Shown in pieces: positions 1 to 7,984 of a stretch of DNA of 7,984 nt (its first letter is position 1; every line of letters starts with the position of its first letter). This DNA comes from a virus (Duplodnaviria; Heunggongvirae; Uroviricota; Caudoviricetes): IMG/VR virus record IMGVR_UViG_2850808358_000006, positions 1 through 7,984 of that record; one strand, given 5' to 3'. The notes under the pieces are model-generated. The model did not search any database. It saw only the letters and a list, made by a program, of their open reading frames with translations, and was not told the origin of the DNA. The position numbers and the translations under genes were made by a program.

Positions 1-57
1 GGTGCTGTCCTGTAAAGCAATGCGCCTGCGTTCCTCAAACTATGGCGCTGATAGTGG

Positions 58-363
58 CTATTCCTGCTCTTTGACCTTGCGTCGCTGGAGTTCTTCACGC
101 GCGACGGTGACGAGTTGCCCGATCTCCTCGGCGGCTTTGACTCCGATTTTTTCCACCTGCGCTAGGGCATCGAGCGAAGAAACCAGGAGGTTTTCTCCGC
201 TTCCTTCTGCCTGGCGGCGGGCGATTTCACCGCGCATGGCGGTTACTATGAATCCGGCGTTGCTTTCACCGTCCAGTTTTACGGATTCCATGCCTTCAAT
301 AACATCATGCGGGATCCGAGCTGTCAGTGATTGTGATTTTGCGTTTTTTGAACCTGTAGCCAT
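58..363 (-). CDS. ribbon-helix-helix (CopG/Arc-like) DNA-binding protein; candidate repressor divergent from the replication operon
   Basis: Minus-strand ORF (track 58..378, TTG start). I prefer the internal ATG at plus 363-361 because a GAGAGG Shine-Dalgarno lies 6-8 nt upstream (plus 369-377). The N-terminus SLTARIPHDVIEGMESVKLDGESNAGFIVTAMRGEIARR fits a beta-strand/helix/helix RHH pattern by eye. No database search run. Confidence 0.55.
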   Translation of the reverse strand: MATGSKNAKSQSLTARIPHDVIEGMESVKLDGESNAGFIVTAMRGEIARRQAEGSGENLLVSSLDALAQVEKIGVKAAEEIGQLVTVAREELQRRKVKEQE

Positions 364-379
364 CTGTAATCCTCTCAAT

Positions 380-465
380 GAAAGTGTAAGACAATATACA
401 CATAAAAAGTCTTACATAAAAGCATTGACATGTAAGCCACCTATAAATAAAGTTACTTACACCTT
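380..465. promoter_or_regulatory. divergent promoter/operator region: TTGACA (425-430), 17-bp spacer, TAAAGT (448-453), with two inverted-repeat operator candidates
   Basis: Inverted repeat 1: TGTAAGAC (385-392) and GTCTTACA (409-416), 16-bp spacer. Inverted repeat 2: TGTAAG (431-436) and CTTACA (456-461), bracketing the spacer and -10 of the rightward promoter. Lies between the divergent RHH gene and the plus-strand operon. Confidence 0.5.
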
Positions 466-559
466 GTTAATGCAAGGTGCAGAAACGACGAAACCCCGCA
501 CTGTAGGAGCAGTAACGGGGCTTCTAACCACCAACGATAGCAAGATTATCGAGGCAGCT

Positions 560-763
560 ATGAGAAATCATACCATACACCCGCAAGGGCGGGACTCGTA
601 CAACCTGAATAAATACATCTGGCGTTTTATCGCCCTGAGCACCGCACAACCGCGCGTGATTCACATCGTGGCCACCAGCGAACAGGAAGCACGCCAGCAA
701 TCCCCGGCTGGCTGCGTGATGGTATTCGCCGCCCGTATTCGTCAGGGGGTGTGCCATGCCTGA
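560..763 (+). CDS. hypothetical small protein (67 aa), first gene of the rightward operon
   Basis: ATG at 560 preceded by GAGG (551-554). Its stop TGA 761-763 overlaps the next start ATG 756 (ATGCCTGA), suggesting translational coupling. This is the C-terminal part of track ORF 2..763. No recognisable motif. Confidence 0.4.
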   Translation: MRNHTIHPQGRDSYNLNKYIWRFIALSTAQPRVIHIVATSEQEARQQSPAGCVMVFAARIRQGVCHA

Positions 764-1076
764 TATGTCAAATTACCAGTACCTGATTAATCCGCATTTT
801 AACTGTGAGCATGATATTGCTAAAAAGATTTATTCCGCTGCGGATGGGGCTACTGACAATATATCAATGGCTGTTGCGTCAATTGGTAGCCTGATGTGGC
901 ATGCGTCAGAAAATGAGGACTATGACGAAAAGGCCATGCGCATTGATATGGGTAATATCGGTTTGTTACTGGCAATGCTTGGACATTTTGATATTTCGTT
1001 ACGGTGCACCATTGAAAATGCCACAGATGCATTAAATGCTATAAAGAAAGCGAATACTGATTCAAATCGGGGATAA
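756..1076 (+). CDS. hypothetical protein (106 aa), AT-rich accessory-like gene
   Basis: Track ORF 756..1076. GGGGG run (745-749) 6 nt upstream of the ATG; overlaps the upstream stop. Visibly lower GC than flanking genes (by eye, not computed). No recognisable motif. Confidence 0.55.
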   Translation: MPDMSNYQYLINPHFNCEHDIAKKIYSAADGATDNISMAVASIGSLMWHASENEDYDEKAMRIDMGNIGLLLAMLGHFDISLRCTIENATDALNAIKKANTDSNRG

Positions 1077-1082
1077 ATAATC

Positions 1083-1382
1083 ATGAGAACGTATTTATCT
1101 GGCTTGACTGCCAGCGGTTATGCACACCCCCAAATTATCCCCGGCGCTATTTATCTGGATAAGAACGGTAACAGAGTAACGGTAAAAGAACTGATGTTTG
1201 ACCGTGTGTATTTTATCCGTGATGGCTATTCATTTCTTAGTTCGCTGAACGTGGAGATCTTTATTAGCAGATTCAGGCGGGAAATCCCGCTTTCCAGAAA
1301 TAACCATGTGTCATGTATGGATGTTGATAAAAAACTACAGGAACTAAAAAACATGATTGCCGCGTGGAGAGAGCAGAAATGA
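1083..1382 (+). CDS. hypothetical protein (99 aa), AT-rich accessory-like gene
   Basis: Track ORF 1083..1382. Stop TGA 1380-1382 overlaps the primase ATG 1379-1381 (ATGA), suggesting coupling. Lower GC by eye. No recognisable motif. Confidence 0.55.
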   Translation: MRTYLSGLTASGYAHPQIIPGAIYLDKNGNRVTVKELMFDRVYFIRDGYSFLSSLNVEIFISRFRREIPLSRNNHVSCMDVDKKLQELKNMIAAWREQK

Positions 1383-2500
1383 AAAAAGCGCCAAATTTAA
1401 AACACCAGCCGCGTGACAAAATGACGGAAGTCATCATTTTTGCGGGTAGTGATGCGTGGGCACATGCGAAACAGTGGCAGGAACAGGACGGGCGACTGGC
1501 TGGCGATAACGTGCCACCTGTCTGGCTTGGAGAGCAACAACTTGCCGAACTGGACAACCTGCAAATCGTACCGGACGGACGCTATCGCGTGCGTCTCTAT
1601 CAGGCGGGGTTATTGCGTCCGGGGCTTGTTAATACCATCGGGCAGAAACTGGCAGTGGCAGGTGTCAGGGATGCTGATTATTACCCTGAAGGAATGCACA
1701 GCCAGAAACGGGAGAACTGGCGCGAATATCTGGAACGTGAACGGGCAGAGCAGGCGGAAAAGAAAAAGGTAGTTGAACTGCCTGTAAAGAAAAAAGAGCC
1801 ATGCTATCAGGATGATGAATTAAAGCCCCGCGTTGAAAGTCGCGTCGATGGTGTTTTCTGGGTAACGCCCAAAGTGGATAAGCAGTCAGGCGAAATTATC
1901 CGGCCTGAGACGTGGTTATGTTCTCCGCTTGAACTACTGGGAACGGGGACGATCGGTAAAGAGCATTACCGCGTGATGCGCTGGAAAAAATTAGCAAACC
2001 ATGAAGTCATCACAATGGCGATCCCGTGTGGTGGCATTGGCGACCGTGACGGCTGGCGGTTGCTTAAAGATCACGGGCTGAACGTGACAACAAACGGCAA
2101 ATACAGGGCTATCCTGGCTGACTGGATGCAGTTAAGCGGAAGCCATGAGGAATGGCAGCTAAGCACAACAACGGGCTGGCATTTTGGCGCGTATATCATG
2201 CCGGACGGCTCAATCATTGGTGATTCTGAAAAACCGATCCTGTTTACCGGAAAAAGTGCCGCTGTTAATGGCTATTCGGTTGCGGGTACGGCGGAGGGCT
2301 GGCGCGACTGCGTGGCGCGGCTGGCTGGTGGCAATCCGTCCATGATGCTGGGTGTTGCCACGTCACTGGCAGCACCTTTGATTGGCCTTGTTGGTGCTGA
2401 CGGCTTCGGGTACATCTTTTCGAACAGTCATCGGCAGGGAAAACCACCACGCAGAACATCGCATCAAGTTTATGGGGAGAGCCGGACGCACAACGGCTGA
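1379..2500 (+). CDS. primase-helicase, N-terminal fragment (Toprim-like primase region); reading frame breaks near 2411-2416
   Basis: Track ORF 1364..2500 (GTG). I prefer ATG 1379, preceded by GGAGAGAG (1366-1373). Toprim-like segment TEVIIFAGSDAW ... RDADYY by eye. The frame-2 tail after about 2413 (IFSNSHRQGKPPRRTSHQVYGESRTHNG) looks like out-of-frame translation because the conserved helicase motifs continue in frame 1. Confidence 0.6.
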   Translation: MKKAPNLKHQPRDKMTEVIIFAGSDAWAHAKQWQEQDGRLAGDNVPPVWLGEQQLAELDNLQIVPDGRYRVRLYQAGLLRPGLVNTIGQKLAVAGVRDADYYPEGMHSQKRENWREYLERERAEQAEKKKVVELPVKKKEPCYQDDELKPRVESRVDGVFWVTPKVDKQSGEIIRPETWLCSPLELLGTGTIGKEHYRVMRWKKLANHEVITMAIPCGGIGDRDGWRLLKDHGLNVTTNGKYRAILADWMQLSGSHEEWQLSTTTGWHFGAYIMPDGSIIGDSEKPILFTGKSAAVNGYSVAGTAEGWRDCVARLAGGNPSMMLGVATSLAAPLIGLVGADGFGYIFSNSHRQGKPPRRTSHQVYGESRTHNG

Positions 2501-2601
2501 CCTGGTACGGCACAGCGTTAGGTATCGCTAACGAGGCAGAGGCGCACAACGACGGGCTGTTACCCCTGGATGAAATAGGCCAGGCCGGAAACGCGCGGGA
2601 G

Positions 2602-3501
2602 GTGTCCACGTCAGCCTATACGTTGTTTAACGGTTCCGGGAAATTACAGGGGGCGAAGGACGGCGGCAACCGGGAGATAAAACACTGGCGCACGGTGGCA
2701 ATCAGCACCGGAGAAATGGACGTTGAGACATTCCTCAAAACGGAGGGGATAAAAGTCAAAGCGGGGCAGCTTGTCCGCCTGCTTAACGTTCCGATGGAAA
2801 AAGCCACGCACTTTCACGAATACAGCACCGGAAAGGCGCACGCAGACGCGTTAAAGGATGCCTGGACAGAAAATCACGGGGCAGCGGGTCGTGAGTGGGT
2901 TAAATGGCTGGCAGGCCACCAGCAGGAGGCAAAGGATACGGTAAGGGAATGCCGCGAACGGTGGCGCAACCTGATACCGGAGAGCTACGGCGAGCAGGTC
3001 CACCGCGTGGGTGAGCGTTTCGCCATACTGGAGGCCGCGCTTGTGCTTTCCTGTCATGTAACTGGCTGGGCCGCGCAGGAATGCCGGGACGCAATACAGC
3101 ATAACTTTAATGCCTGGGTGAAGGAGTTCGGCACGGGTAACAGGGAATTTAAACAGATGGTTGAACAGGCTGAGGCGTTTTTGTCGTCGTTCGGGTTCAG
3201 TCGATACCTTCCTTACCCAAACAGTGATGAACGTGATTTACCGATTAAAGACCTTGCCGGATACAGAAAGGGGAGTATCAGAAATGAAGATGATGAGTTC
3301 CGTTTTTACACGTTTCCTCATGTGTTTGAGGGGGAGATCGCACAGGGATTTAACCCGTCCCACTTTGCCCGCGCGTTGAGTGCTGCCGGAATGCTGGAAG
3401 CGGGTAACGATCGCCGTTACAAGAAAAAGGCTCTCGGCAAAATTGGGGGGAAGCAGCATGTTTTTTACGTGCTGATGTTCCAGCCTGAGGCAGAAGATTA
3501 A
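2602..3501 (+). CDS. primase-helicase, C-terminal fragment (SF3/D5-like or DUF927-like helicase); homology extends upstream to about 2413 in the same frame
   Basis: Track ORF 2602..3501 (GTG). My manual frame-1 translation from 2413 gives HLFEQSSAGKTTTQNIASSLWGEPDAQRLTWYGTALGIANEAEAHNDGLLPLDEIGQAGNAREV, with Walker A (GKTT) at 2437-2448 and a Walker B-like LLPLDE at 2557-2574, then running into the track ORF. This means the two fragments are one gene split by a frameshift. Confidence 0.6.
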   Translation: MSTSAYTLFNGSGKLQGAKDGGNREIKHWRTVAISTGEMDVETFLKTEGIKVKAGQLVRLLNVPMEKATHFHEYSTGKAHADALKDAWTENHGAAGREWVKWLAGHQQEAKDTVRECRERWRNLIPESYGEQVHRVGERFAILEAALVLSCHVTGWAAQECRDAIQHNFNAWVKEFGTGNREFKQMVEQAEAFLSSFGFSRYLPYPNSDERDLPIKDLAGYRKGSIRNEDDEFRFYTFPHVFEGEIAQGFNPSHFARALSAAGMLEAGNDRRYKKKALGKIGGKQHVFYVLMFQPEAED

Positions 3502-3523
3502 CCCCCTGTGTGAGGTGAAAAGT

Positions 3524-3840
3524 TGCGGGTTATGCGGGTTACTCTGTGTATAAGTGCATTAACTGCATGAATAAAAAGGAAATCAATAACCCGCACGTAA
3601 CCCGCAAAACGGCAGTTATAACCCGCAAAAGTGCGATTATAACCCGCAGATGAATAACAGGAAGTGACAGCAAACAGCCACGCGTAACCCGCAGAAAAAA
3701 AACCGTTTGCGGGTTATTTTGAGCATTTTGCGGGTTACGCCACGGCTAAACAGTAAACAGTTAATTTTGTAATGTATTGATATTAAGGAATAAAAAATAC
3801 TTAGCAAGCGAAGATAACCCGCTAACCCGCATAACCCGCA
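3524..3840. repeat. iteron array (9-mer TAACCCGCA / TGCGGGTTA, about 12 copies) around an AT-rich core; putative origin of replication
   Basis: Reverse copies at 3524-3532, 3533-3541, 3708-3716, 3729-3737. Forward copies at 3587-3595, 3598-3606, 3619-3627, 3640-3648, 3685-3693, and three tandem copies across 3814-3840. AT-rich stretch about 3740-3812. Sits immediately 3' of the helicase gene, as in SaPI/PICI-type origins. Confidence 0.7.
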
Positions 3841-3879
3841 CTGTTTTGTATATATATACGAAAAATTGAGATCTGAACT

Positions 3880-4122
3880 ATGAAGGCAAACCGCAAACAA
3901 CCACACTACCGCGCTATTGACCTTACAGAGCACTGGCTGAGAGTGGCGATAAAAATCATCGACCGAAACACGGGGGAAGGATATGCAAAAGCACATCCCG
4001 AACTGATAAGCGCATTCATGACAACGGCAGCTGCAAACTTTGCCACGTTGACAGAACGGGAGATTGCCGAAGCGGAACAGGTAACAACCATCAACGTTAA
4101 AACCGGAGAGCAGACAGCATGA
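3880..4122 (+). CDS. hypothetical protein (80 aa)
   Basis: Track ORF 3880..4122. Stop TGA 4120-4122 overlaps the SSB ATG 4119 (ATGA). Weak Shine-Dalgarno. A TATATATA box (about 3849-3858) immediately follows the last iterons. Confidence 0.5.
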   Translation: MKANRKQPHYRAIDLTEHWLRVAIKIIDRNTGEGYAKAHPELISAFMTTAAANFATLTEREIAEAEQVTTINVKTGEQTA

Positions 4123-4541
4123 CAGCACAGATAGCGGCTTACGGGCGGCTGGTGGCTGACCCGCAGTTAAAGACCACCAGCAAGGGTACACAAATGACGA
4201 TGGCTAGTATGGCGGTACCCCTTCCGTGCAGCCAGGCAGATGACGGAACGGCGACGATGTGGTTATCCGTCCTGGCGTTTGGCAGACAGGCCGACGCACT
4301 GGCAAAACACCACAAAGGCGAACTGGTGAGCGTGGCGGGTAACATGCAGGTAAGCCAGTGGACAGGCCAGAACGGCGAAACGCGGCAGGGCTGGCAGGTT
4401 ATCGCAGACAGCGTAATCAGTGCGAGAACGGCGCGACCGGGCGGAAAAAAAGGCCAGCAGGGGCAGGCTACTGACGCACTGAACAGGGCAAAACAACAGG
4501 CGGGTAACGATGATCCGTACGGGGATAACATACCGTTTTAA
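4119..4541 (+). CDS. ssb: single-stranded DNA-binding protein (SSB family, short form, 140 aa)
   Basis: OB-fold pattern similar to E. coli SSB by eye: MWLSVLAFGRQADALAKHHKGELVSVAGNMQVSQWTGQNGETRQGWQV compared with [43 protein letters not shown]. Gly/Gln-rich linker and C-terminal tip DDPYGDNIPF, matching the conserved SSB protein-interaction tail that ends in IPF. Confidence 0.8.
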   Translation: MTAQIAAYGRLVADPQLKTTSKGTQMTMASMAVPLPCSQADDGTATMWLSVLAFGRQADALAKHHKGELVSVAGNMQVSQWTGQNGETRQGWQVIADSVISARTARPGGKKGQQGQATDALNRAKQQAGNDDPYGDNIPF

Positions 4542-4556
4542 ACAACGAGTAACAGA

Positions 4557-4579
4557 AGCCGGAGAAGTCCGGCTTTTTT
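4557..4579 (+). terminator. rho-independent terminator after ssb
   Basis: Stem AGCCGGA (4557-4563) and TCCGGCT (4568-4574), loop GAAG, followed by a T-run through 4579. Confidence 0.75.
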
Positions 4580-4585
4580 ATGCCC

Positions 4586-4626
4586 AAAAAAAGCCCGATA
4601 AGGTCAGAGGGTCTTATCGGGCTTTT
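4586..4626. terminator. second hairpin, bidirectional-terminator-like (A-run, 11-bp stem, T-run)
   Basis: A7 (4586-4592); stem AGCCCGATAAG (4592-4602) and CTTATCGGGCT (4613-4623); 10-nt loop; TTTT (4623-4626). Confidence 0.55.
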
Positions 4627-4707
4627 GCATATGAGGCTTTTATCTAACAGTATGGTAACTACTGTTGTCGGAGATAATTTCATAATTTGCAACACAACTC
4701 AACATTA

Positions 4708-4764
4708 TTGCGTAAAATGAAATCATGATTATAATCACAACTGGATGAACATCCAGTTGTGATT
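4708..4764 (+). promoter_or_regulatory. candidate promoter of the capsid operon (TTGCGT -35, perfect TATAAT -10 at 4730-4735) overlapped by a perfect 15-bp palindrome
   Basis: AATCACAACTGGATG (4733-4747), 2-bp centre, CATCCAGTTGTGATT (4750-4764), then TTTT. The palindrome begins inside the -10 hexamer, so it is either an operator for a dimeric regulator or an RNA hairpin. Confidence 0.45.
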
Positions 4765-4791
4765 TTTAACGTCAAAGAGGAATTTCCGACT

Positions 4792-4998
4792 ATGGCAGAA
4801 GAGAAAAAAGGCGGGGTGACAGTTTACATAAGCCCAGACATCGTGGAGGCGCTCAGGGAACGCCACCAGCAGAACGTAAAAGCAGGCATTGCGGCAGGAC
4901 TTGATCCGCTGGCGATGGTTGAGCCGTCAACAGGCTGGCAGGTACGCGCCTATTTACGCGCGGCGCTGGGCATGAATCAGACGCATGGAGGTGAATAA
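4792..4998 (+). CDS. hypothetical small protein (68 aa) preceding the major capsid gene
   Basis: Track ORF 4759..4998 (GTG). I prefer ATG 4792 with AAGAGG (4775-4780) upstream. Stop TAA 4996-4998 overlaps the capsid ATG 4998 (TAATG). Function unknown; a scaffold or regulatory role is speculation. Confidence 0.45.
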   Translation: MAEEKKGGVTVYISPDIVEALRERHQQNVKAGIAAGLDPLAMVEPSTGWQVRAYLRAALGMNQTHGGE

Positions 4999-6053
4999 TG
5001 GCAGGCAAAGCAACGGCACTTAACACTAACCAGCTTTTCGCGTACCTGAATCGCGGGGATATTGCGGAATTTAAATTCAGTCCGCTGTTTACCACGCTGT
5101 TTTTCCCGAACGTGGCGACATTCAACACCCAAAACATCATGCTGGACACCCTGGACATTGAAGAGGTTACGATGTCGGCGTTTTGTTCGCCTATGGTGGG
5201 TAGTCAGGTCCAGCGCGATAAAGGGTACGAAACCAGCACGATTAAACCTGGATACATGAAGCCGAAGCACGAAATCGATCCAACGAAAACCATCATGCGT
5301 ATGGCTGGAGAAGATCCGGCACAGCTTAATGACCCAACCTATCGCCGTATGCGCCTGATTACTGGCAACATGCGCCGCCAGATAAACGCCATTAAGGCAC
5401 GCGTGGAATGGCTGGCGGTGAATGCGATAACGACCGGAAAAAACATCATTGAGGGCGAAGGCATAGAACGCTATGAAATAGACTGGAAGATCCCAAGTAA
5501 AAATATCGCCAGACAGGGACCGGGTAAAAAGTGGTCAGAGGCAGATAAGGAAACACACGATCCAATCTATGACATCGAGCTTTATGCTGATCAGGCTGGT
5601 TGCCCCGCAAACGTCATGATTATGGGCGCTGAGGTATGGCGCACGTTACGCAGCTTTAAAAAATTCCGTGAGCTGTACGATCTTTCCCGTGGTTCAGAAT
5701 CCTCCGCCGAACTGGCCTGTAAAAACCTGGGCGAAGTGGTGAGCTTTAAAGGCTATCTGGGCGATATTGCCCTTATCGTCTATTCCGGCAAATACGCCGA
5801 CAGCGACGGCACAGAAAAATATTTCCTTGAACCTGATTTGCTGGTCCTGGGCAACACCAACAATAAAGGGCTGGTGGCCTATGGTGCGATTATGGATCAG
5901 GACGCAGTAAGAACGGGGGCAACGCAAAACATGTACTACCCGAAAAACTGGATTGAGGACGGCGATCCGGCGATTGAGTACGTGCAGACGCACAGCGCAC
6001 CGCAGCCGGTTCCGGCAGATATTCGCAAATTTGTTACTGTCAAAATTGCTTAA
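4998..6053 (+). CDS. major capsid protein, phage lambda gpE family (351 aa)
   Basis: Colinear with lambda gpE by eye along the whole length. Examples (window vs lambda): FKFSPLFTTLFFPN vs FKFDPLFLRLFFRE; KPGYMKPKHEIDPT vs TPGYVKPKHEVNPQ; DPTYRRMRLITGNMRR vs DPAYRRRRIIMQNMRD; FKGYLGDIALIVYSGKY vs YKGMYGDVAIVVYSGQY; VLGNTNNKGLVAYGAIMDQDA vs VLGNTQARGLRTYGCIQDADA; YYPKNWIEDGDPAIEY vs RYPKNWVTTGDPAREF. GGAGGTGA Shine-Dalgarno at 4987-4994. Confidence 0.9.
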   Translation: MAGKATALNTNQLFAYLNRGDIAEFKFSPLFTTLFFPNVATFNTQNIMLDTLDIEEVTMSAFCSPMVGSQVQRDKGYETSTIKPGYMKPKHEIDPTKTIMRMAGEDPAQLNDPTYRRMRLITGNMRRQINAIKARVEWLAVNAITTGKNIIEGEGIERYEIDWKIPSKNIARQGPGKKWSEADKETHDPIYDIELYADQAGCPANVMIMGAEVWRTLRSFKKFRELYDLSRGSESSAELACKNLGEVVSFKGYLGDIALIVYSGKYADSDGTEKYFLEPDLLVLGNTNNKGLVAYGAIMDQDAVRTGATQNMYYPKNWIEDGDPAIEYVQTHSAPQPVPADIRKFVTVKIA

Positions 6054-6064
6054 CGGGGGATTCT

Positions 6065-6400
6065 ATGGACACTCCATACATTGAGTTATTTGCAGGCAGC
6101 CAGCAGGTATCCACGACGCTGGTACATTTTGCCGCTGATGCTGGCGTTATTCAGGAATTTACCCCGCTGATGCTGGCGGACAATGGCGAGTTTAAGGCGT
6201 GGGATGGTCAGGAATCTGGCAAGGCTGTTTATCTGACCTCGTACCCCGTGGACACGTCGACGCAGAAATCAGCACAGTGTTACAAGACGGGGATATTTAA
6301 TATCGCCGCCGTTAACTGGCCTGAGAGCGTCGACACCGACGCGAAAAAATGCGCCGCCTTTGCGGGTTCTGGTGTATCTGTTCAGCCGCTGGCGCGATAA
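6065..6400 (+). CDS. head decoration protein, phage lambda gpD family (111 aa)
   Basis: By-eye alignment with lambda gpD: TPLMLADNGEFKAWDG vs TPLMLDTSSRKLVAWDG; YKTGIFNIAAVNWPESVDTDAKKCAAFAGSGVSV vs [40 protein letters not shown] Shine-Dalgarno at 6055-6060. Confidence 0.85.
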   Translation: MDTPYIELFAGSQQVSTTLVHFAADAGVIQEFTPLMLADNGEFKAWDGQESGKAVYLTSYPVDTSTQKSAQCYKTGIFNIAAVNWPESVDTDAKKCAAFAGSGVSVQPLAR

Positions 6401-6413
6401 GCAGGGGGGAACG

Positions 6414-6827
6414 ATGGCAACGAATGAAAGTATCATGGCGCTACCGCTGGCGAGTAAATTTAAAGCTGAAGCGCGGGCAATGGCTGACAGATGTCTATCA
6501 ACCTACGAAGCTATATATCAACTTAACAAACTGGAAGAACAGGACAAGCCGCGCGCTGATGCGATTATGTCGCTTCATGAATCTGACGACTATCAGCCGC
6601 TGTTACGTGCAATGGCAAACGTGCCTTGTATTGATGTTGATACGGCTAAAAACATCCTGAACATGACCATAGAGCAGGAACGCCAGAAGGTTGCACCAGA
6701 GCTTACCGCAGCCTTTGAAAACTTTATGGACATGCACAGCCCACAAGCCGTATCAGCTGGCATGGCATACGATGGCAGAAACCCGGGCGATGACGGCGAC
6801 ATTGATCGCATACTGAAAACCATCTGA
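6414..6827 (+). CDS. hypothetical protein (137 aa), last gene of the capsid operon
   Basis: Track ORF 6360..6827 trimmed to ATG 6414, which follows a GGGGGGA run (6404-6410). Followed by a terminator. No recognisable motif; not obviously lambda FI or FII. Confidence 0.6.
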   Translation: MATNESIMALPLASKFKAEARAMADRCLSTYEAIYQLNKLEEQDKPRADAIMSLHESDDYQPLLRAMANVPCIDVDTAKNILNMTIEQERQKVAPELTAAFENFMDMHSPQAVSAGMAYDGRNPGDDGDIDRILKTI

Positions 6828-6833
6828 GACAAG

Positions 6834-6855
6834 GCCGGAGAAATCCGGCTTTTTT
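6834..6855 (+). terminator. rho-independent terminator after the capsid operon
   Basis: Stem GCCGGA (6834-6839) and TCCGGC (6844-6849), loop GAAA, T-run 6850-6855. Nearly identical in sequence to the terminator at 4557-4579. Confidence 0.75.
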
Positions 6856-6976
6856 GCGGGTCCTTTCCGGCATATGGACCTGTTACGGGGCGGCGACCTC
6901 GCGGTTTTTCGCTATTTATGACGTTTTTCCGTGAAGGTGACACCACCACCACTTGATTAACATTTAACCAGTTAAT
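6856..6976 (+). other. lambda-type cos site (cosQ-like 6858-6870, cosN cohesive-end core GGGCGGCGACCT 6888-6899, short cosB-like region)
   Basis: GGGTCCTTTCCGG ... GTTACGGGGCGGCGACCTCGCGGTTTTTCGCTATTTATGA matches the joined lambda right end and left end (GGGTCCTTTCCGGTGATCCGACAGGTTACG + GGGCGGCGACCTCGCGGGTTTTCGCTATTTATGAAAATTTTCCGG), recalled from memory. Downstream CGTTTTTCCGTG (6922-6933) resembles the lambda R3 element CGTTTCCGTTCT. Followed by CACCACCACC and the palindrome TTAACCAGTTAA (6964-6975), then the Nu1-like gene. Confidence 0.8.
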
Positions 6977-6988
6977 TGAGGTAACATT

Positions 6989-7423
6989 ATGATTGATAAG
7001 ACTTGTTTTGTAAGTCAGCAGGAAATAGCTGAACATTTCAAGGTAAACAGAACCACTATTCGCGCATGGACCAAACAGGGGATGCCGTATCTTAATGCGG
7101 ATCGCGGAAAGTCCGGCGGTTATCACATCGGGCATACATTGCTTTGGTCTTCAGGTAAAAGCCATCTTGAGGCCATTGGATATCACGTAGAAACCAGTGC
7201 GCTGGAAAAAATTATGGTTGCCAGGCTGCTTTCATCTGAGCGTGACGAGTACTCCAGTGAAGAAACAGAACATCGATTTGATGAAGGTTTGCAGATTTAC
7301 GGCTATTCACCGGAAGATGTGAGCAAAGCACGAAATAAAATGGCTGGCTTTCTGGCTGGGTGGCGTCATGCAGTAAGCGTTCGCCGTGCCAGCATGGAGC
7401 AATCAGCCGATACCGAACAGTAA
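6989..7423 (+). CDS. Nu1-like small terminase subunit homologue (winged-HTH DNA-binding domain), 144 aa; possibly a packaging-redirection (Rpp-like) factor
   Basis: N-terminus QQEIAEHFKVNRTTIRAWTKQGMPYL matches lambda Nu1 KKQLADIFGASIRTIQNWQEQGMPVL by eye. About 35 aa shorter than Nu1. No large-terminase gene follows. TGAGGT Shine-Dalgarno at 6977-6982. Lies directly downstream of the cos site. Confidence 0.75.
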   Translation: MIDKTCFVSQQEIAEHFKVNRTTIRAWTKQGMPYLNADRGKSGGYHIGHTLLWSSGKSHLEAIGYHVETSALEKIMVARLLSSERDEYSSEETEHRFDEGLQIYGYSPEDVSKARNKMAGFLAGWRHAVSVRRASMEQSADTEQ

Positions 7424-7479
7424 AGCCGATAACTTGTTAATCACTCGCAGCAATGCGTGTGATTTGTGCACACTTTCGG

Positions 7480-7670
7480 TTAACTGGTTCGATGTCCGGT
7501 TTTAGTGTCTGTTTTTTGCGCATGTCCGGTTCATGGAAAGCATGTTTTTGTATTTTTCATATAGTTAACTTGAAGAGAAGCCGGACATGGCTCCTGGAAA
7601 ATTTTCATAAATAGCGAAAACCCGCGAGGTCGCCGCCCCGTAACGGGCCATAATTCCAGGAAGGACCCGA
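7480..7670 (-). other. second cos-like site in inverted orientation (cosN core on the minus strand at 7627-7638, cosQ-like at 7656-7668, cosB-like region with three ATGTCCGG-type repeats)
   Basis: The reverse complement of 7594-7640 reads CGGGGCGGCGACCTCGCGGGTTTTCGCTATTTATGAAAATTTTCCAG, near-identical to the lambda cosN left flank. Repeats ATGTCCGG at 7492-7499 and 7522-7529 and the inverted CCGGACAT at 7581-7588 occupy positions like lambda R1/R2/R3, with an AT-rich stretch between them. TTAACTGGTT (7480-7489) mirrors the palindrome in the first cos site. Confidence 0.65.
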
Positions 7671-7702
7671 CGACACCAGACTATCAGAACGATGGGGGCA
7701 CA

Positions 7703-7984
7703 ATGACAGAAGCCGAAATACTGGGATTAATCCGTCGCGTTACCGGAATCAGCCAGCAGGCTGACGAACAGACCACGCAGCCGGACAGCGTGACAGCCGA
7801 AAACTATGCGCGTGTTGTGGCTGAGGTGATGCGCCGTGATGGTATTGAGCTTAACGGCGAGGATATGCGCAACATACGAACCAGAGTTCTCGGGTTGTTG
7901 TCATACCGTCGCCGTTCTCAACAACGGAGGGAGAGCGCGAAAAATACTTACCAGTGGAAGAAGCCGGAACGGCTGCGGCGGTAA
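7703..7984 (+). CDS. hypothetical protein (93 aa)
   Basis: Track ORF 7703..7984. GGGGG run at 7694-7698 upstream of the ATG; stop TAA at the window end. Basic C-terminus (RRRSQQRRESAKNTYQWKKPERLRR). No recognisable motif. Confidence 0.5.
   Translation: MTEAEILGLIRRVTGISQQADEQTTQPDSVTAENYARVVAEVMRRDGIELNGEDMRNIRTRVLGLLSYRRRSQQRRESAKNTYQWKKPERLRR

Follow-up and report, generated by a model that had tools for sequence, protein, structure and literature searches.

The closest described relative of the locus considered here is RgdR, encoded by ECs1581 of enterohaemorrhagic Escherichia coli (EHEC) O157:H7 Sakai and the sole DUF4222 protein to have been studied. RgdR is a basic protein of 99 amino acids (aa; pI 10.1) that activates the LEE1 promoter in the enterocyte effacement locus (LEE), represses motility, raises Congo-red binding and shows weak, non-specific binding to DNA (Flockhart et al., 2012; PMC3378721). 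Residue 20, within its RGD motif, is important for activity, and deletion of rgdR gives a phenotype in uninduced EHEC; orthologues share more than 77% similarity over the 99 aa, and truncated copies of the gene occur elsewhere (PMC3378721). The reported properties, namely activation of LEE1 and of the type III secretion system, repression of motility and DNA binding, concern only ECs1581 and C1493, its orthologue in strain CFT073 (PMC3378721), while the literature on phage-inducible chromosomal islands (PICIs) lists RgdR as an accessory virulence gene of these islands in E. coli (PMC6092414). A functional model is offered by the satellite P4, in which ORF106/cnr lies directly 5′ of the gene for the primase alpha, with the helper derepressor epsilon encoded upstream in the same operon. 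Cnr controls P4 copy number, and in P4-like satellites the interval from epsilon to alpha frequently houses small genes of two families (PMC8628076). Here, we analyse a pair of small genes, orf106 and a DUF4222 gene, in a 7,984-nucleotide (nt) stretch of viral DNA (IMG/VR record IMGVR_UViG_2850808358_000006, positions 1 to 7,984; hereafter the window), which is identified as an E. coli PICI-type phage satellite by its open reading frames (ORFs), by scans for protein families and by BLAST comparison with complete genomes of the species. We propose, with moderate confidence, that the pair is a conserved part of the early (induction/replication) operon of enterobacterial PICI-type satellites, where it would serve as a core replication or induction accessory.

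Both ORFs could be confirmed, orf106 at 756-1076 (106 aa) and the DUF4222 gene at 1083-1382 (99 aa). The original prediction, made from the window alone, had seen no recognisable motif in either product. This holds for gene 1, which has no match in Pfam, NCBIfam or PADLOC, but not for gene 2, which matches Pfam DUF4222 at 60.2 bits (cutoff 27) over residues 17-67 and also phrog_285 (E 2.7e-21). The gene 2 product resembles RgdR in being a basic DUF4222 protein of 99 aa encoded directly 5′ of a satellite primase, just downstream of a gene for a small acidic helical protein. At the Sakai locus (Sp7, also described as CP-933C or OI-51), ECs1581 stands directly 5′ of the primase gene ECs1582 and overlaps it by the same four nucleotides, ATGA, as in the window; the 'prophage Sp7' that carries it is a capsid-encoding satellite. 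The two proteins differ, however, in sequence and in partner. Gene 2 is 29% identical to ECs1581 (49% positives) and 33% identical to the RgdR-type protein of a related island (L006), well short of the similarity reported among RgdR orthologues, and has P20-G21-A22 where RgdR has RGD, with only G21 invariant across types. In addition, the upstream partner of RgdR, ECs1580, is unrelated to orf106. Gene 2 shares the genomic position of rgdR and neither its sequence level nor its motif, and is best regarded, from these alignments, as a divergent positional counterpart of RgdR and not as an orthologue. A PDB sequence search with both families of the pair returned only chance-level matches, and we presume from the sequence pattern that DUF4222 folds as a small beta-rich core followed by a C-terminal helix.

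The pair is held in its operon by stop and start codons that overlap or nearly abut on all sides, in line with the translational coupling that had been predicted. The orf106 ATG at 756, with a GGGGG run 6 nt 5′ of it, overlaps the stop codon of the preceding Icd-like gene (TGA, 761-763) by 8 nt; 6 nt separate the orf106 stop (TAA, 1074-1076) from the DUF4222 ATG at 1083; and the DUF4222 stop (TGA, 1380-1382) overlaps the primase ATG (1379-1381) to form the ATGA. Inside the pair, a consensus scan of the + strand gave neither a promoter-like nor a terminator-like site. We collected 156 IMG/VR loci with window-type and RgdR-type DUF4222 queries and analysed the 154 with a called DUF4222 ORF. In every one of the 152 loci with a readable downstream side, whatever the replicase family, the DUF4222 and replicase genes share 4 nt, ATGA, at their stop/start junction. 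Upstream, orf106 directly precedes the window-type DUF4222 gene in all 72 loci of that type, at a distance of 6 nt in 71 of them, and is itself preceded by the Icd-like gene, with the 8-nt overlap, in 70. The RgdR-type DUF4222 gene instead follows a gene of the ECs1580/orf75 family in 76 of 77 loci with a readable upstream gene, and the protein encoded upstream in the lone exception (86 aa) looks related to that family.

The ECs1580/orf75 proteins (72-80 aa, encoded 5 nt 5′ of DUF4222) are like orf106 in being acidic and helical and in occupying the same position relative to DUF4222. Sequence and profile comparison nevertheless found no relationship between the two families (hhalign probability 0.3%), and because both occur in one Klebsiella operon, they are not simple substitutes for each other. 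What every version has in common is a charge pattern, an acidic helical partner (pI 4.8-5.1) next to a basic DUF4222 protein (pI 9.1-10.2). Both DUF4222 types pair with D5_N-type and with DUF927-type replicases, and a RepA-helicase replicase is arranged alike. Among 5,426 complete E. coli genomes, an N-terminal domain shared by these replicases was found at 2370 places in 1734 genomes, the window-type pair at 513 places in 474 genomes, with 95-100% identity and almost always in full, and RgdR-type DUF4222 at 1836 places. Since the two DUF4222 counts together come close to the count of N-domains, nearly every such replicase seems to have a DUF4222 gene, although these counts are approximate because of the truncated rgdR copies.

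The slot upstream of the replicase thus exists as orf106 with window-type DUF4222, as an ECs1580-like protein with RgdR-type DUF4222 and, in Klebsiella, as both partner genes with a short DUF4222. It does vary between related islands, some of which carry an unrelated 75-80-aa gene with an RgdR-type DUF4222 gene whose product is 29-33% identical to the window's. Judged by the roughly 180 loci sampled, the slot holds a core module of the early operon in a small number of alternative forms and is not a cargo hotspot. The genuinely variable part of the pre-primase region lies further upstream, in RgdR-type islands, where a string of small, mostly acidic helical ORFs (50-170 aa) runs from the regulator or Icd-like gene to the ECs1580-like gene; examples are L007 (26732-28299), L179 (3967-4657) and the IMG/VR RgdR-type loci.

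The arrangement extends to deep relatives. At one such locus (L194), an orf106-family gene is followed after 2 nt by DUF4222 and then, with an overlap of 4 nt, by an 893-aa Zn-finger/DUF927 primase with a different N-terminus; its two small proteins are 31% (orf106) and 48% (DUF4222) identical to those of the window. The Klebsiella operon has the order orf106-like gene, ECs1580-like gene, short DUF4222 gene and D5 primase gene. The triad of orf106-family gene, DUF4222 gene and primase gene is ancient, recurring in deeply diverged lineages. The Klebsiella element itself (L008-L010, 1-12321) contains two integrase-family genes and has phage structural genes on both sides, with capsid and cement proteins to the left and Dit-like and tail genes to the right, in which it resembles helper-embedded satellites (PMC10111431).

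DUF4222 is also found at replication genes outside satellites. An ORF of 59-73 aa with a DUF4222 match (Pfam E ~1e-19), unannotated in the records, overlaps the start of an O-like replication gene by 11 nt in two lambdoid phages, SfIV and Klebsiella phage ST101-KPC2phi6.3, and in prophage e14 of K-12. It has in common with gene 2 the DUF4222 core and an end that overlaps the start of a replication initiator gene, and differs in being shorter, in lacking the C-terminal helix region and in being nested out of frame in an annotated gene; the initiator, moreover, is an O-like winged helix-turn-helix (HTH) protein, whereas that of the window is a primase-helicase. DUF4222 directly precedes at least two unrelated kinds of initiator, the satellite primase-helicases, with their several N-termini and catalytic cores, and the O-like winged-HTH protein. 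In a tblastn search of 50,697 GenBank phages, P4 included, the two window proteins gave no match at E <= 1e-3, and only the RgdR-type query reached the e14/SfIV-like phages, weakly. The e14-type ORF lies within the 3′ half of ymfM, the 'cell division inhibitor' gene of e14. Over this overlap, SfIV and the Klebsiella phage are 86% identical in the DUF4222 frame and 54% in the ymfM frame; SfIV and e14 differ at 4 nt, every one of them silent in the DUF4222 frame. Most of the nested ORF would be included in the ymfM clone that has been published.

The replicases that follow DUF4222 belong to different families, D5_N/Pox_D5 primases, DUF927 primases and RepA-family helicases, that have in common an N-terminal domain of ~140 aa without a Pfam match. 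Recombination breakpoints fall just after this domain. Owing to the shared domain and the breakpoint behind it, the DUF4222 types can combine freely with the replicases. DUF4222 type and N-domain are mostly, not strictly, linked. The window is itself a mosaic of three parts: bases 1-1799 are 100% identical to strain Ecol_224 (L001), whose replicase diverges from the window's past 1799; bases 459-4542 are 98% identical to strain AR_0077; and the capsid half (4557-7984) is 91-93% identical to SCU-172 and 2014C-3307. At least 80% of the window is covered in just 2 of the 5,426 complete genomes. The block identical to Ecol_224 comprises the regulator, the pair and the first ~140 codons of the replicase, so that no recombination junctions delimit the pair. 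In the window, the primase gene falls into two ORFs (1379-2500 and 2602-3501), since, compared with its intact 2124-nt counterparts in L002-L004, it has lost 1 nt from a G-run (GGGG to GGG) near 2405, just 5′ of the Walker A motif; it is either a pseudogene or the product of a homopolymer sequencing error.

The original prediction had read the pair as an AT-rich two-gene cassette inserted between the regulatory region and the primase. Its AT-richness, which had been judged by eye, is borne out by computation: GC content is 40.8% over 756-1382 against 51.1% in the rest of the window, and the pair is the lowest-GC 627-bp stretch of the window (minimum at position 761), with 0.38% of 627-bp windows as low. 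All three codon positions are AT-shifted, with GC at third positions (GC3) of 0.38 in orf106 and 0.46 in the DUF4222 gene, compared with 0.53-0.66 in the adjoining Icd-like and primase genes, although gene 2 does not stand out by GC3 alone, a distant gene (6989-7423) being at 0.43. The contrast with flanking genes is repeated elsewhere. Mean GC of pair and flanks is 0.41 and 0.52 in window-type loci and 0.44 and 0.53 in RgdR-type loci, where low GC is confined mostly to the helical partner gene; in Klebsiella it is confined mostly to DUF4222; and the small genes of L194 stand at 0.50 against 0.57 in their flanks. Low GC is thus shared by unrelated lineages of the two families and is no evidence of recent insertion into this island; the AT-richness is real as a signal, but one that such small genes show repeatedly. 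Composition, coupling and slot variation therefore survive from the cassette reading, whereas insertion is not supported in view of the invariant overlap with the replicase, the few partner-gene families upstream, the deep recurrence of the triad and the identical block that passes through the pair. The ratio of nonsynonymous to synonymous polymorphism (pN/pS, from about 50 alleles each) is 0.36 for orf106 and 0.31 for DUF4222, compared with 0.48 for the adjacent replicase N-domain, and these low values mark both as real genes under purifying selection.

Gene 1 belongs to a phrog of unknown function, phrog_15327, and an exhaustive HMMER search of 1.84 billion proteins found only 20 representatives; a scan of genome contigs with the orf106 profile gave only 7 loci. 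A profile search led to 133 orf106-family clusters in Klebsiella, Hafnia, Serratia, Yersinia and relatives, which describe an Enterobacterales family of acidic helical hairpins of ~100 aa with the conserved core IGxLMFxA...NExY...DMxxIGxLL, aligned without gaps to distant members. An AlphaFold2 model built on a 114-sequence alignment predicts a long two-helix hairpin (helices 19-51 and 58-104) with a mean predicted local distance difference test (pLDDT) of 86.9, against a pLDDT of 54 for a poor earlier model based on 7 sequences. Foldseek searches of the later model against PDB and BFVD returned only generic hairpins (EsxB-like, ROP-like), all at E > 0.4. A second in-frame ATG of orf106 is located at 765, 1 nt past the Icd-like stop; in the 114-sequence alignment, the start Met of most family members aligns with 765, while the GGGGG run favours 756, and the tight coupling is kept with either start. 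Orf106-family proteins of Klebsiella, Serratia, Raoultella and Phytobacter (P0075, P0079, P0084 and many others) bear the name 'ubiquinol-cytochrome C reductase' in NCBI and UniRef. This name, which is unsupported given the lack of a Pfam match and the satellite early-operon context, is probably a propagated annotation error.

Compared with P4, the resemblance is one of position. Cnr (DUF5375), the closest functional model for a small gene adjacent to a primase, is likewise small, also 106 aa, and encoded in the early operon directly 5′ of the primase gene; it differs in being separated from alpha by a 14-nt gap instead of overlapping it, and in being unrelated in sequence to both window proteins (hhalign probability 0.1% for both families; Pfam DUF5375 matches Cnr and neither window protein). 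Epsilon, of the Ash family (PF10554), is the model behind the earlier cargo idea and is also a small early-operon protein encoded upstream of a satellite primase. However, it has no Pfam or BLAST similarity to the pair (orf106 has no Pfam match at E <= 1, and gene 2 matches only DUF4222), and where related islands have Ash-family genes, these stand on their own, upstream of the Icd-like gene. A relationship of the pair to Cnr or epsilon was rejected, as neither profile nor sequence comparisons found one. Defence cargo was also rejected, PADLOC-DB v2 having given no family at E <= 1 for the orf106, DUF4222, Icd-like or YlcI-like proteins.

Beyond the anatomy, conservation, selection and family membership described above, we infer a role for the pair in replication, together with physical interactions of its products. 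Because stop and start codons overlap at this junction, ribosomes finishing DUF4222 would re-initiate on the replicase, and both proteins would be made together. DUF4222 would then assist, as an accessory factor, either expression of the replicase or the function of the origin, and be positionally comparable to Cnr of P4, and orf106 may be a protein-binding partner or modulator, either of DUF4222 or of the upstream Icd-like protein. Host genes would be affected incidentally, by virtue of DUF4222 being a DNA binder that is small and basic. The phenotypes of RgdR are compatible with such a protein perturbing host transcription, and the RgdR precedent suggests, by analogy, that the pair has side effects of this kind.

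Several observations weigh against a replication or induction accessory. Functional data exist for RgdR alone and concern host gene expression (LEE1, motility, Congo-red binding), and the deletion phenotype in uninduced cells implies that RgdR is expressed and matters to the host outside the satellite replication phase. Synteny and coupling could reflect operon history alone, and because recombination between versions so diverged is precluded, the tie between orf106 and one DUF4222 type could be purely physical. The N-domain clusters track DUF4222 type imperfectly, with 6 of about 150 loci discordant, which disfavours tight co-adaptation. In Hafnia and Serratia satellites, an orf106-family gene is followed by a gene for an unrelated basic protein of 112-115 aa and then by the primase gene, so that DUF4222 is dispensable for that architecture; in Yersinia lambdoid prophages, orf106-family genes occur without a nearby primase; and the fold of orf106 is a generic helical hairpin without an informative structural match. 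The Hafnia protein, orf115, was tested as a divergent DUF4222 and rejected.

The reading of the pair as a replication or induction accessory can be extended into a more speculative form, which we consider unlikely. DUF4222 would be a near-universal, unrecognised companion of initiator genes in enterobacterial satellites and e14/SfIV-like phages, a family of translationally coupled, small DNA-binding factors without which the origin would not fire or H-NS-type silencing of the element would not be lifted, with acidic hairpins of the orf106 and ECs1580 kinds as modulators and virulence control by RgdR as a side effect. Part of the effects attributed to the overlapping ymfM of e14 might likewise be a side effect of DUF4222.

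The strongest alternative, rather less likely than an accessory role, is that DUF4222 mainly reprogrammes host transcription in the manner of a moron gene, as for RgdR, with the acidic partner tuning it. The effects of RgdR on LEE1, motility and Congo-red binding, its non-specific binding to DNA and the uninduced deletion phenotype all point this way (PMC3378721), as does the standing of RgdR as an accessory virulence gene in the PICI literature (PMC6092414). The AT-richness of the pair is also in keeping with it. The window protein, however, has diverged far from RgdR and is without the RGD motif whose residue 20 matters; moreover, such accessory genes are not usually locked to a replicase by a 4-nt overlap or present in a ratio of about 1:1 with it, and DUF4222 also precedes lambdoid replication genes. 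In one version of a host-directed role, DUF4222 would counter H-NS-type silencing and in doing so would also help the expression of the AT-rich island itself. Derepression of LEE, loss of motility and curli/Congo-red binding resemble the phenotypes of hns loss of function. The RgdR study, however, neither proposed nor tested an involvement of H-NS (PMC3378721). Control of host genes overlaps with a replication or induction accessory and does not exclude it.

A role as swappable cargo, for helper derepression, helper interference or anti-phage defence, was what the original prediction favoured, and we now regard it as quite improbable. The compositional contrast with the flanking genes, the occupation of the slot by first genes of at least two non-homologous kinds and by two types of DUF4222 that have diverged deeply, and the further variable small acidic genes upstream in RgdR-type islands are what such a role would predict. 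The precedent of epsilon, in the same operon upstream of the P4 primase, points in the same direction, as does a Yersinia prophage in which an orf106-family gene adjoins the repressor gene, a typical moron position. Defence hotspots, though, typically hold many unrelated systems, whereas only a handful of versions is seen here, each of them highly conserved and all of them with DUF4222 as the constant member. The antiquity of the triad, the purifying selection on both genes, the recombination block that continues through the pair into the replicase, the low GC shared by unrelated lineages and the lack of similarity to PADLOC families, epsilon/Ash or Cnr argue against cargo as well. Finally, we give little credence to orf106 being the partner of the upstream Icd-like protein, as an acidic, antitoxin-like antagonist or chaperone limiting the toxicity of a basic cell-division inhibitor: the 8-nt overlap of the two genes, the opposed charges of their products (pI 10.3 and 4.8), and the position of orf106-family genes 3′ of an Icd-like-domain gene even where DUF4222 is missing (directly in Pantoea, with a short ORF between in Serratia) or directly before an Icd-like gene (Yersinia L016) would fit, but a gene other than an Icd-like one precedes the orf106-family gene in L194 and Klebsiella, RgdR-type islands have other acidic proteins after the Icd-like gene, and 'Icd-like' is here a family name only.

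The remaining features of the window are those of a PICI-type satellite, which comprises an integrase, a regulator, a primase with an iteron-type origin of replication (ori), a packaging/capsid module, a size of ~10-15 kb and a specific attachment site. The primase, the iterons, a single-stranded DNA-binding protein (SSB), the major capsid and decoration proteins and a terS-like gene are seen inside the window, while the integrase and the HTH regulator, which lie to the left of the window's gene set, and the chromosomal flanks were read in homologous islands (L001-L006). These islands carry the integrase, the HTH regulator, YlcI/YnfO (likewise annotated in L001-L006), the Icd-like gene, the pair, the primase, SSB and capsid genes, and in complete genomes they are inserted between cspD and clpS or between rcnR and thiM. 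In the region after the primase gene, AACCCGCA(A/G)A occurs in direct orientation at least 7 times, with inverted copies (TTGCGGGTTA) flanking it on both sides, and these repeats fit the iteron-type ori described for E. coli PICIs (PMC6092414). Coordinates are collected in Table 1.

Table 1. Positions of the features discussed, in the window unless another record is named.
Feature	Coordinates	Strand	Evidence or remark
YlcI/YnfO-family gene, divergent	58..378	-	NCBIfam NF041551, 71 bits; left edge of conserved regulatory block
Candidate sigma-70-like promoter of the early operon	425..453	+	TTGACA, 17-nt spacer, TAAAGT; consensus scan 10/12; a consensus match only, such sites being no commoner in the region than in shuffled sequence
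Icd-like gene, first gene of the operon	560..763	+	67 aa, pI 10.3; NCBIfam phage_ICD_like, 71 bits
orf106	756..1076	+	106 aa, pI 4.8; phrog_15327, E 5e-71
DUF4222 gene	1083..1382	+	99 aa, pI 9.6; Pfam PF13973, E 1.4e-16
Replicase N-terminal domain, ~140 aa	1379..1799	+	Same conserved block as the pair; no Pfam match
DUF927-type primase/helicase gene	1379..3501	+	Pfam DUF927, phrog_1139; split into two ORFs
Iteron-rich, AT-rich region after the primase	about 3520-3900		Putative ori
SSB, major capsid, head decoration and small-terminase-like genes	remainder of the window, after the iteron region
Shared N-domain in L001	9680-10100
Shared N-domain in L179	4959-5350
Unannotated DUF4222 ORF in E. 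coli K-12 MG1655, e14 (L202)	5002-5181
Unannotated DUF4222 ORF in SfIV (L200)	3438-3659
Unannotated DUF4222 ORF in ST101-KPC2phi6.3 (L201)	3480-3659

That RgdR is an accessory gene of E. coli satellites was already known (PMC6092414), and the pair is ordinary in being a common and conserved component of satellites. The portions of the literature mentioning DUF4222 that were available to us do not describe its strict coupling to the replicase start, its alternative partners, the orf106 family or the nested ORF of e14. For annotation, it follows from our analysis that the pair should not be scored as defence cargo, and that e14 and phages related to it have a conserved DUF4222 ORF that their records lack. 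In roughly one complete E. coli genome out of three, there is a satellite replicase whose start is locked to a DUF4222 gene. If these proteins are indeed replication or induction factors, the effect of RgdR on virulence would need to be reinterpreted, the induction of satellites would be mechanistically linked to the regulation of host virulence, and PICI biology would gain an unrecognised conserved component.

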